From a virus (Duplodnaviria > Caudoviricetes): a stretch of 56,793 nt of DNA. The stretch spans positions 1-56,793 of the IMG/VR virus record IMGVR_UViG_3300048839_000639. One strand, 5' to 3'. Below the pieces are notes generated by a model, which saw only the letters and a program-made list of their open reading frames with translations, searched no databases and was not told where the DNA came from. Every line of letters starts with the position of its first letter. The first letter of the stretch is position 1. The position numbers and the translations under genes were made by a program. Positions 6,657-15,534 of this stretch are shown here, in pieces.

Positions 6657-6865
6657 TCGTGGTTGATCTCCTCGACAGCGGCTTCCGGAGTCGTGTGGAA
6701 TCCGCTGGTGTAGTGGCCGGCGGCGGTATACATCACCGCGCCGGCGGCGTCACGGTGGGCAAACACATCCACCTGTGCACCGCAGCAGTCATAGGTGACT
6801 GCGACGCGCAGTGTGTCAGAGTTTGCTCGGTCAAAGTCTTGCGGGGTGTGCGGTTTGATTTTCAT
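6653..6865 (-). CDS. Hypothetical protein
   Basis: MKIKPHT...; stop overlaps the DUF1874 start. Confidence 0.55.
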   Translation of the reverse strand: MKIKPHTPQDFDRANSDTLRVAVTYDCCGAQVDVFAHRDAAGAVMYTAAGHYTSGFHTTPEAAVEEINHE

Positions 6866-6871
6866 GGGAAA

Positions 6872-7003
6872 CAAAAAACGGCGAACACAAATTGATGTGT
6901 TCGCCGGCAGTCGCGCTCTTTCAGAATTTCTTTTCGCCACTAAGGGCAATTCTGCAAAAGTTGCAGTCCCCTCGTGCGGGGTTGGCTGCGCGACTGCCGG
7001 CGA
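6872..7003 (-). promoter_or_regulatory. Structured RNA element with overlapping terminator (attenuator-like)
   Basis: 16-bp perfect inverted repeat 6901-6916/6988-7003 enclosing two hairpins; 11-bp terminator stem 6879-6906 plus U6 shares 6 nt with it. Confidence 0.7.
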
Positions 7004-7005
7004 GT

Positions 7006-7581
7006 CTACATCGTCTCCACCTCGGCGTCAATCACGACGCCATCTTCGTCGCGGTATGTGCCCACGCGCCGACCGCGCAGGTATTCAACCTCGGCCATTC
7101 CGCTTTCGCTGAGATACAGCGGGGCGGCTTCCTCGCCCATGCGCAGGTAGCCATACGCTGCCTCGCTCCACTCGTCGGGGAGCGTGGGCGTGATGTCGCG
7201 GTCGTGGTCGCCGCGCTCCACCTTCTCCGCGTGCTGACACGCGGGGACGGTGATTGACATGTGCAGCATCGGCATCGGGATGCAGGTGCGCGCGTCGAAC
7301 GAGCGGATGTTGAGCAGGTCGTAGTAGCCAACCTCGCCTGAGTCGGCGTCGTAAAACATAGACTCAAGGCCGGCGTCAACCTCGACAAAAAAGAACGTCT
7401 GAAACGTCTGCGCGCTCAAGTCGCGTTTGTTGCGCGTGATGATGTGCAGCGCGGCGACGAAAAACAAATTCGCGCTGTAGTAATCGCCGGCGTTCTTTGC
7501 GCGCTCGATCAACTCGATGAGTGCGTGAATTTCGGCGAAAACGTCGGGCTTGGTCGGCATGTTCATGGCTTTTGCTGTCAT
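7006..7581 (-). CDS. Hypothetical acidic protein (start 7581 or 7566)
   Basis: Long ORF in operon orientation. Confidence 0.65.
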   Translation of the reverse strand: MTAKAMNMPTKPDVFAEIHALIELIERAKNAGDYYSANLFFVAALHIITRNKRDLSAQTFQTFFFVEVDAGLESMFYDADSGEVGYYDLLNIRSFDARTCIPMPMLHMSITVPACQHAEKVERGDHDRDITPTLPDEWSEAAYGYLRMGEEAAPLYLSESGMAEVEYLRGRRVGTYRDEDGVVIDAEVETM

Positions 7582-7634: not shown

Positions 7635-8627
7635 TTAGAGCGCCCTCACAAGCCACTGCATGTATTCGGGCGAGTCAACAGCCACGGCTTCGCACGGCTC
7701 GATTTCTTCCTCGTAGCCCTCATCAGTCGGGCTGTCGCTGGCGGCCTTGACCAGCCAGACGATTTTGACGCGATCCGGTTCCAGGTTCGGATGCGCGAGG
7801 AGCACCGCGTCGCGCTCGTTGAGGGCTTCGATGGAAGGGCAGACGCGGTCTTTCCATTCGGCGGCATCCTCGTAGTCGAGGACGTAGCCAGGAAACTCGG
7901 CGGCGGCGCGCTCAATGAAATACAGCCGTCCGCACTCGTGGCCGGCGGCCATGCCACGGCGCAGGCGTTCGCTGCCGTGCTCGTTTGCCCACGCGATACG
8001 CGCATCGCGTGCAGCTTGCTTCGCCGCTTCCTTCTCGGCGGCTTCCGCCGCCTTGCGCGCTTCGGCCTCGGCCTTGAAAGCGGGTTGCAGTGCGAGGTAT
8101 TCAGCGCGCGCGGCTTCATAAGCGCGCAGGTCGATTTCCGCGCCGGCCTCGCGCGCGTTCGCCATCTGCCGGTCAATGTTGCCGCCGGTGTAGGTCGCGC
8201 TGCGCGCCTCGATCAACGCGCGGTAGTTGGCCGCGATGCCGTCAATGTGAGCCTGCGCACTCACGCGCACCTGCTCGCGGTGCAGCGCGGCGAGGCGGTC
8301 GAACTCGGCCTGATGCATCTCGCGCGATGCGAGTGCATTGCCGGCGCGCGCGATCCAGTCAGCGATGCTTGGCAGCGTCTCAAACTCGTCAGCTCGCTCG
8401 GTGATCCACTGAGGCGCGCCAGTGGTGCTATACATCTGCCGCGCGCCAGTGGTGCGCGCCGGCATCTCATAGCACTCGTTTTTCACACAGCGCACGAGCA
8501 CCGCGCGCTGCTCAGGGGTGAGCAACACGGGATCGAACTCAATGCGCTCAGTGCGCGCGAGTTGCTTGCCGGTGGCGATGAAATGAGCACTAATCAGTTT
8601 CTGCGTCGGGTGAAATTCTGCGAACAT
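7635..8627 (-). CDS. Hypothetical protein with Ala/Glu coiled coil
   Basis: CAGGAG SD before MFAEF; 330 aa. Confidence 0.75.
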   Translation of the reverse strand: MFAEFHPTQKLISAHFIATGKQLARTERIEFDPVLLTPEQRAVLVRCVKNECYEMPARTTGARQMYSTTGAPQWITERADEFETLPSIADWIARAGNALASREMHQAEFDRLAALHREQVRVSAQAHIDGIAANYRALIEARSATYTGGNIDRQMANAREAGAEIDLRAYEAARAEYLALQPAFKAEAEARKAAEAAEKEAAKQAARDARIAWANEHGSERLRRGMAAGHECGRLYFIERAAAEFPGYVLDYEDAAEWKDRVCPSIEALNERDAVLLAHPNLEPDRVKIVWLVKAASDSPTDEGYEEEIEPCEAVAVDSPEYMQWLVRAL

Positions 8628-8740
8628 TGGTTTCTCCTGCCGGCACCTGCCGGCTGAATCAAATCTGATGTGCACATGCTCATCAGTCCCGCTGCGCGGG
8701 AGACACCCCCACCGCGAGGGTGGGGATGTTTCGCTGTGCA

Positions 8741-15461: not shown

Positions 15462-15534
<73 letters not shown>

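Follow-up and report, generated by a model that had tools for sequence, protein, structure and literature searches.

What is the long-stemmed RNA that lies directly upstream of a gene block which may counteract CRISPR (clustered and regularly interspaced short palindromic repeats) immunity, and what might it do there? We addressed this question in the IMG/VR virus record IMGVR_UViG_3300048839_000639, which is estimated to be 64% complete and whose 56,793 bases were all analysed and are called the window hereafter. The RNA element occurs once in the window, and its coordinates and those of its parts refer to the minus strand (Table 1). The second gene downstream of it belongs, judged by its sequence, to the AcrIII-1 family (DUF1874) and encodes a putative ring-nuclease homologue. 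A preliminary description had taken the element for a riboswitch-like switch that gates the expression of these genes. Our analysis tentatively points to another answer. The element may be a solitary CRISPR repeat unit, i.e. a candidate RNA anti-CRISPR (Racr-like) beside the AcrIII-1-family gene, with a leaky terminator that is specific to this window. We consider this reading plausible, if a little short of probable.

The RNA folds into a multi-branch structure that is closed by one long helix. The two arms of the helix are 16 nucleotides (nt) each, 100% complementary and 71 nt apart. The folding energy of a 151-nt RNA is -61.6 kcal/mol, compared with -41.5 +/- 3.9 kcal/mol for 200 dinucleotide shuffles (z -5.2), none of which is as stable (0/200). 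The perfect stem of 16 base pairs (bp) around a multi-branch RNA, as first noticed, was therefore confirmed, and its interior needed some revision. The minimum free energy (MFE) structure contains the CCCC/GGGG hairpin and, in addition, the hairpins CUGCAA/UUGCAG and UUGCC/GGCGA. The CCCC/GGGG core of the first inner hairpin proposed is thus present, but its GCAG/CUGC extension would draw bases from the 16-bp helix. The second one proposed, CAGAAUU/AAUUCUG, is found only as an alternative that shares bases with CUGCAA/UUGCAG and UUGCC/GGCGA. The helix starts 2 nt after the stop codon of the upstream gene (7008-7006). Its 3' arm is the complement of the start of the repeat-like unit, not a second copy of it.

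The 5' part of this fold holds a 35-nt unit that looks like a complete CRISPR repeat. The full model (positions 1-37) of the Rfam family CRISPR-DR10 matches it with 15.5 bits and an expectation value (E) of 0.57 in the 191-nt region, which is the second-highest score and the lowest E-value there. In a homologous locus, L010, the same family gives the top match at the homologous place, with 24.3 bits and E 0.0013 (181 nt searched). In this genome DR10 matches nothing but the unit at E <= 1, and across 57 kb of related loci its counterpart in L010 is the sole CRISPR-DR match up to the same E-value. According to excerpts of PMC3479195, many CRISPR RNAs (crRNAs) processed by Cas6 bear the 8-nt 5' tag AUUGAAAC, which is cut from the repeat end at the base of the hairpin. 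The last 8 nt of the unit read ACUGCAAC in the window and ACUGAAAC in L010. They agree with the tag at 6/8 positions in the window and at 7/8 in L010, and the agreement is 8/8 in a unit of a third viral contig, L026, described below. We found one unit only, and not the two or more direct repeats of a CRISPR array or mini-array. It lies in intergenic DNA of a mobile element, after the stop at 7006 and before the ATG at 6865 in a virus record, and 304 nt from the AcrIII-1-family gene.

The fold and the repeat-like unit are conserved in one relative. L010 is one locus that was recovered from metagenome contigs by a protein-alignment scan, and its upstream protein is 77% identical to that of the window; the same scan of viral contigs and genome contigs gave no further locus. 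DNA patterns made from the element found nothing related in the viral contigs, and the two further matches were chance occurrences in coding DNA. The homologous RNA in L010 directly follows the homologous upstream gene and overlaps its stop codon. A check for covariation among homologues, as advised in the preliminary description, shows that the fold is kept: 13 stalk pairs are shared with the window, there is one compensatory C-G to U-A change, the CCCC/GGGG hairpin is invariant and the third hairpin is maintained through two wobble changes. The z score of the L010 fold is -5.7, and its stalk is lengthened by an outer 5-bp helix (14+5 bp versus 16 bp in the window). The identity between the two sequences is 30/35 nt in the repeat-like unit, 14/16 in each arm and 21/43 in the intervening segment, the last number being somewhat low because the ungapped alignment contains a one-base register shift. 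The 10-mer motif AAAUUCUGAA in this segment is common to both.

The conserved feature does not include the switch. No U-tract terminator follows the RNA in L010, where a T5orf172/MUG113 gene, and not an AcrIII-1 block, comes next after 15 nt. The homology between the window and L010 stops exactly at the 3' arm, and it is the upstream gene that the RNA element accompanies, not the downstream one. Since L010 keeps the RNA without the terminator and with another gene downstream, the switch layout is not a conserved feature. The conserved unit is a folded RNA attached to the upstream gene, not an RNA-plus-terminator switch before anti-CRISPR genes.

These observations bear directly on the possibility of a ligand-sensing riboswitch, in which the multi-way junction would be an aptamer that gates anti-CRISPR expression, perhaps by sensing cyclic oligoadenylate. 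The preliminary description was right that the downstream genes include a ring-nuclease homologue (the DUF1874 gene at 6656-6330, PF08960, E 1.6e-10), and the overlap of the helix with a terminator is real and finely balanced, as shown below. The competition between helices thus holds for the conditional switch claimed earlier, but its tie to anti-CRISPR genes is lost in L010, which lacks both the terminator and the AcrIII-1 block. We did not see an aptamer and an expression platform conserved together before regulated genes. At E <= 10, neither a riboswitch nor any other cis-regulatory family of Rfam matches the 191 nt, 3 kb or the whole window. Both homologues retain the repeat-like hairpin, while their junction strands are different. 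In eight other DUF1874 loci we found neither a comparable element nor a CRISPR-DR match at E <= 1 (0/8). A riboswitch is hardly credible in view of these results. Self-cleaving ribozyme families of Rfam gave no match to the element itself either, in the 191 nt or in the whole window.

The perfect arms and the abrupt end of homology at the 3' arm would also suit a DNA feature, i.e. either a small mobile element with inverted repeats or a palindrome at the border between modules where a protein binds or recombination occurs. We consider this very improbable. The element has one copy in the genome, and a search for the arms with 55-85 nt spacing gave 0 viral contigs and 3 genome records, all unrelated chance matches. 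In addition, the inner hairpins are kept through wobble changes, which matter only in RNA.

The repeat likeness leads to genuine CRISPR arrays of a type III-D-like system. We used a pattern derived from the element (hairpin plus tag), by which the arrays as well as L026 and L027 were found. It matched 7 of the 301 sampled Acidobacteriota genomes at 18 places, compared with 2 matches of the reversed control. Of these 18 places, 13 belong to two genuine arrays, one of 9 and the other of 4 repeats at even spacing, and in both of them the pattern motif is the 3' end of a 37-nt repeat. The 9-repeat array adjoins genes for a Cas10/Cmr2-like protein, Csx10 (type III-D), several Csx7-type RAMP proteins and a reverse transcriptase-Cas1 (RT-Cas1) fusion, and we annotate this locus as type III-D-like. 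Two single matches in Acidobacteriota (L032 and L033) were rejected as arrays, as they lie in coding-like DNA. In the Acidobacteriota genome G684 the 9-repeat array and the type III-D-like set are located at L036 1488-2220 and L037 7775-18730.

The phage units score in the same range as such repeats. DR10 has a gathering cut-off of 39 bits and gives the genuine array repeats 28.8 bits (the array beside the type III-D-like locus) and 33.3 bits, and a degenerate end repeat 18.8 bits. Because the genuine repeats are also below the cut-off, the phage units fall within the range of real, diverged repeats. The identity to the type III-associated repeat is 68% (25/37) for the window, 73% for L010 and 71% for L026, and the two genuine array repeats are 65% identical to each other. 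The third viral contig, L026, has at 897-932 on its minus strand (the same as L028 1501-1536, minus strand) one solitary unit of the same layout that ends in AUUGAAAC. This unit scores 24.6 bits with DR10 (E 6.5e-5 in the 47.9-kb record) and has no long stalk. Three clustered tRNA genes lie ~270 nt away from it on the opposite strand.

We also built a repeat model, R1, from the two array repeats. Across the whole window it matches the element best (16.5 bits, E 0.054), the next match having 11.9 bits, which is consistent with a solitary unit; it scores 22.4 bits in L010. Four observations are independent of the way in which the arrays were found: the Rfam matches, the picking out of true arrays by the motif, the position of the motif at the repeat 3' end, and the likeness of the 5' GU.GCGC to the start GUGGCGC (8-9/13), the last with one of the two arrays only. 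With a solitary and oriented unit that has an AcrIII-1-family gene 304 nt away and finds its nearest genuine relatives in a type III locus, the element would be a candidate against a type III or another Cas6-dependent system.

Several points weigh against a solitary CRISPR repeat. The tag-like end in the window differs from the common tag at two positions, and the unit contributes its first 7 nt to the pairing of the stalk, a feature that the excerpts of PMC10651486 do not describe for Racrs. All repeat scores are under the Rfam gathering score. The 15.5-bit match is not significant window-wide, where unrelated chance matches reach 27.6 bits, and the DR10 match in L010 has E 0.4 in a 57-kb search. 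The match of R1 to the window arises partly by construction, because the arrays were found with a pattern derived from the element. With two homologous sequences alone, the conservation could be mere common descent. The gene next to the RNA in L010 is no known anti-CRISPR (acr) gene, and the eight other DUF1874 loci carry no such unit. Blastn against plasmids and phages found no array with a near-identical repeat, only chance matches, and among 401 Pseudomonadota genomes 5 had a single match each versus 14 matches of the reversed control. Two Streptomyces plasmid matches from blastn were inspected as possible cognate arrays and rejected, and a Thermus plasmid was discarded as it has no DR10 match.

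Alternatively, the element could be a generic structural RNA, whose long helix would be an RNase III-type processing site or a stabiliser of the 3' end of the upstream mRNA and would be followed in this phage by an ordinary, partly efficient terminator. The repeat likeness would then be the coincidence of a G+C-rich hairpin. We regard this explanation as unlikely but deserving of real weight. It agrees with the place of the element just past the upstream stop codon in the window and across it in L010, with its travelling with the upstream and not the downstream gene, with the helix of 16 bp in the window and 14+5 bp in L010, and with repeat scores that are under the cut-off and not significant genome-wide. 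Long hairpins are also common in the intergenic DNA of these phages, where they give microRNA (miRNA)-like chance matches of 26-37 bits. However, it leaves unexplained why the strongest conservation inside the fold falls exactly on a repeat-like unit that is complete, correctly oriented and ended by a tag-like sequence, why the unit pattern retrieved type III-associated arrays, and why L026 has a solitary unit. Should the solitary-repeat reading fail, little interest would attach to the element, which would then be a commonplace structure for processing or termination.

In this phage the closing helix is coupled to an intrinsic terminator. A G+C-rich stem of 11 perfect pairs, 7 of them G-C, is followed by a run of six U residues. 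The last 6 nt of the 16-bp stem (6906-6901) are also the first 6 nt of the terminator 5' arm, which bears out the overlap and the competition that had been proposed. For the RNA 7010-6866 we computed -60.8 kcal/mol with the full 16-bp helix, -61.6 kcal/mol for a mixed MFE state (14 + 7 pairs) and -59.7 kcal/mol with the full terminator. The three states are thus within 2 kcal/mol, and the outer four G-C pairs of the terminator, which adjoin the U run, form with a probability of 0.39-0.46. If the RNA starts at 7040, i.e. 30 nt more upstream, an extended helix captures the terminator, whose pair probability falls to 0.03-0.04. If it starts at 6996-6994, as the promoter-like match described next implies, the terminator forms with a probability of 0.94-1.0. 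These are equilibrium calculations, not co-transcriptional folding. By this modelling, the two helices compete through a short branch migration between states of nearly equal energy, and which of them prevails depends on where the transcript begins. The stop codon is 2 nt away from the helix, and a ribosome positioned there could likewise tip the balance. The terminator/promoter scan found other strong hairpin terminators in this phage.

The 5' end of the transcript could be defined by a sigma-70-like promoter match, TTGACG-17-TAGACT, which lies within the end of the upstream gene and ends 9 nt before the repeat-like unit. It implies a putative start site near 6996-6995, 1-2 nt before the unit. 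Sites of this quality (9/12) number 6 in 20 kb compared with 5.3 +/- 2.5 in shuffles, making the match weak when taken alone, and the site is poorly kept in L010. It is the only nearby match in a consensus promoter scan, which found none between the terminator and the ATG at 6865. As the block 6865-5683 has no consensus promoter of its own, the downstream genes need read-through.

It could be suggested that ligand-free attenuation is the main role of the element in this phage. A ribosome ending the upstream gene would cover the 5' arm, release the 6 nt common to both helices and let the terminator form, while untranslated or antiterminated transcripts would keep the helix and be read through. 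Such a role is consistent with the three near-equal states, with the upstream coding sequence extending the anti-terminator so that the terminator almost disappears, with the stop codon next to the helix, and with genes that have no consensus promoter and begin 14 nt past the terminator. But it cannot be the conserved function, since L010 has no terminator, and the argument is thermodynamic only and compatible with a solitary repeat unit rather than exclusive of it. We find attenuation as the main role improbable. Riboswitch expression platforms, trp-type attenuators and HK022 put are known leaders of the terminator/antiterminator kind. The element is like them in that the helix shares bases with the terminator 5' arm and precedes genes without a promoter of their own. 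It differs in that no aptamer family matches, that there is no leader peptide and the ribosome would be ending a full-length gene, that the layout is absent from L010, and that a 6-nt branch migration between near-isoenergetic states takes the place of two exclusive folds.

Another possibility is that the unit works as a one-repeat guide (mini-array or crRNA-like). Cas6 would cut before the tag, and the next 30-40 nt would be loaded into a host effector and directed against a rival element or host defence genes. The unit does precede a 43-nt segment of spacer length. According to the excerpts of PMC3479195, the 5' tag is all that crRNAs of types III and I-B require, and their 3' ends are trimmed. 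Viral crRNA-like regulators are known from a preprint, also seen in excerpt (10.1101/2024.10.29.618823). However, we found no target for the segment: an 18-mer scan of viral contigs gave none, blastn against phages gave a chance match at E 3, and the window and related loci give at most 12-nt matches. The segment is also homologous between both phages, not swapped as spacers are, and is itself folded. We assign a small chance to a working guide. Within the segment, the stretch 6918-6940 (minus strand), GUGGCG...AUUCUGAAAG, resembles the start and the end of the 37-nt array repeat of G684 without its hairpin. This may reflect chance or the remains of a second repeat that has degenerated.

In the reading that we prefer, the element would act as a solitary repeat unit in the following way. 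An RNA of ~100 nt would display one type III-like, Cas6-type repeat look-alike in the multiloop of the long closing helix. The hairpin and the 8-nt tag-like end might be bound, and perhaps cut, by the host Cas6 or by type III proteins, and the bound proteins would be drawn off real crRNAs, alongside the action of the protein ring-nuclease homologue. The long helix may serve as a processing or stabilising stalk that separates the small RNA from the operon mRNA. Two classes of transcript might then exist. On a short RNA begun at the promoter-like site the terminator, which was added in this phage only, would form fully according to the calculation; on read-through transcripts from upstream the helix would weaken or abolish it, and the AcrIII-1-like block would be transcribed.

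A related proposal is that the element is a sensor of the CRISPR machinery. Cas6, or a type III subunit, would bind the nascent repeat-like hairpin, fix the multiloop together with its closing helix, withhold the shared 6 nt from the terminator and free the AcrIII-1-like block from termination. We give it a slightly smaller chance than the working guide. If true, it would be a protein-responsive riboregulator made from a CRISPR repeat, and the block would be transcribed only in cells with a matching CRISPR system. The idea of a conditional switch would be rescued, with Cas6 and not a nucleotide as the signal.

Both solitary repeats and RNA anti-CRISPRs belong to a kind that is already known. 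As described in the excerpts of PMC10651486, mobile elements carry solitary repeat units between their genes, frequently right behind a promoter, and such units are over-represented at distances of up to 1 kb from acr genes. One such unit was shown to trap Cas6f and Cas7f, and RNA anti-CRISPRs were predicted for all CRISPR types except VI. The catalogue contains 2,103 viral units, IMG/VR included (Camara-Wilpert et al. 2023, PMC10651486), and this contig may already be among them.

The comparison with these systems, again drawn from excerpts of PMC10651486, shows both likeness and difference. Like a Racr, the element is one repeat-like unit outside arrays, intergenic in a phage, after a weak promoter-like site and less than 1 kb from an acr-family gene, and like repeats processed by Cas6 it has a hairpin plus a tag-like end. 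The differences from Racrs are as follows. The nearest genuine repeat found is 68% identical (73% for L010), and no cognate host array turned up in the plasmids, phages and sampled genomes searched. The multiloop of a 16-bp helix houses the unit, whose first 7 nt take part in that helix. The element also lies inside an operon, has a scaffold that overlaps a terminator in this phage and is known here from sequence alone. As in the case of RacrIC1 with AcrIC5 (PMC10651486), a mimic made of RNA would stand beside an anti-CRISPR protein, both directed at one CRISPR type. Here, in contrast, the type would be III and the protein a DUF1874 homologue and thus a candidate anti-CRISPR, and L010 has the RNA without the protein. 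Cracrs, which hijack Cas proteins, are likewise phage RNAs built from repeat-like parts (preprint 10.1101/2024.10.29.618823, in excerpt). Their pseudo-spacers match promoters of cas or toxin genes and they are reported for types V-A, I-F, I-E, I-C and I-B, whereas the segment of the element has no target in our searches and the likeness is to a type III-associated repeat.

What appears to be new is the scaffold, i.e. a long closing helix that two phages retain, that engages the start of the unit in pairing and that is coupled here to a terminator before an AcrIII-1-family block. The excerpts of PMC10651486 do not describe such a scaffold for RNA anti-CRISPRs. If the element is indeed a solitary repeat unit with this function, the phage would join an RNA mimic of a type III repeat and a ring-nuclease-family protein in one operon, as two layers of counter-defence against the same immune system. 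Two questions are raised by this possibility, namely whether solitary repeats act against type III systems and whether the scaffold sets the transcription level of an anti-CRISPR block.

Table 1. Positions of the RNA element, its parts and the neighbouring genes in the window.
Feature	Position	Strand	Details
Gene	9067-8741		leftward gene string
Gene	ATG 8627 to 7635		leftward gene string; extent read from the translation of the open reading frame (ORF)
Upstream gene, 191 amino acids (aa) by homologues	7006..7581	-	mechanical ORF from GTG 7656
Sigma-70-like promoter match TTGACG-17-TAGACT	7003..7031	-	within end of upstream gene; 9/12 consensus
Element (structured RNA plus terminator)	7003-6873	-	between upstream gene and 70-aa gene
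Structured RNA	6901..7003	-	16-bp helix 7003-6988 / 6916-6901, closing a multiloop of three hairpins
35-nt CRISPR-repeat look-alike	6960..6994	-	5' GUCGCGC, 6 nt, CCCC (6981-6978) / GGGG (6971-6968), tag-like end ACUGCAAC (6967-6960)
43-nt A+T-richer segment in spacer position	6917..6959	-	poorly conserved; hairpin UUGCC (6949-6945) / GGCGA (6938-6934)
Intrinsic terminator	6873..6906	-	11-bp stem (6906-6896 / 6889-6879), 6-nt loop, T6 (6878-6873); absent from L010
First downstream gene, 70 aa	6653..6865	-	stop overlaps next start; no Pfam or PHROG match
DUF1874 / STIV_B116-like (AcrIII-1 family) gene, 108 aa	6330..6656	-	Pfam PF08960, phrog_5063
Small gene, 71 aa	6333-6118	-	no Pfam or PHROG match
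Small gene, 143 aa	6114-5683	-	no Pfam or PHROG match

The operon that holds the element is probably an anti-defence operon. Among the proteins of the gene block a family was assigned to the 108-aa protein only, which scores 41.4 bits against a cut-off of 26 for its Pfam family. The 191-aa upstream protein has 9 homologues of 45-77% identity in a large protein collection and no Pfam or PHROG match. Its AlphaFold2 (AF2) model is mostly helical, with a predicted local distance difference test (pLDDT) score of 74.5; Foldseek found no PDB match at E <= 0.001, and none was found by sequence either. Ten of the 82 distant relatives found were scanned and gave no Pfam match. That this protein could be a Cas6 was ruled out by the mostly helical model, by the lack of PDB matches by fold or sequence and by the relatives without Pfam matches. 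The nearest relatives of the terminase are from Rhizobium phages and Methanoculleus viruses at ~50% identity, and those of the serine recombinase are from mixed taxa (Atlas).

The 70-aa gene has its ATG 14 nt past the terminator stem and no clear Shine-Dalgarno sequence. In both the window (6865) and L010 (3673) the gene after the element starts 14-15 nt beyond the structure without a clear Shine-Dalgarno sequence. As the stalk draws the upstream stop codon and the next start codon together, the fold might also serve translational coupling.

Other structured RNAs were observed in the window and in related loci. Long hairpins with miRNA-like Rfam chance matches of 32-37 bits lie at L010 397-502 and L005 3365-3445 (both plus strand), the latter just after the DUF1874 gene of L005. 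A probable type II hammerhead ribozyme lies in the window at 8670-8736 (minus strand), in the gap between the gene 9067-8741 and the ATG at 8627 of the same operon. The full Rfam model RF02276 matches it with 34 bits (cut-off 37), with E 0.0038 in the whole window and 1.4e-5 locally, and GCGAAAC, GUC and CUGAUGAG are present. An anticodon AAC on tRNA-Val is unusual for bacteria, and ARAGORN and Rfam both identify such a tRNA-Val at 15462-15534 on the plus strand of the window.

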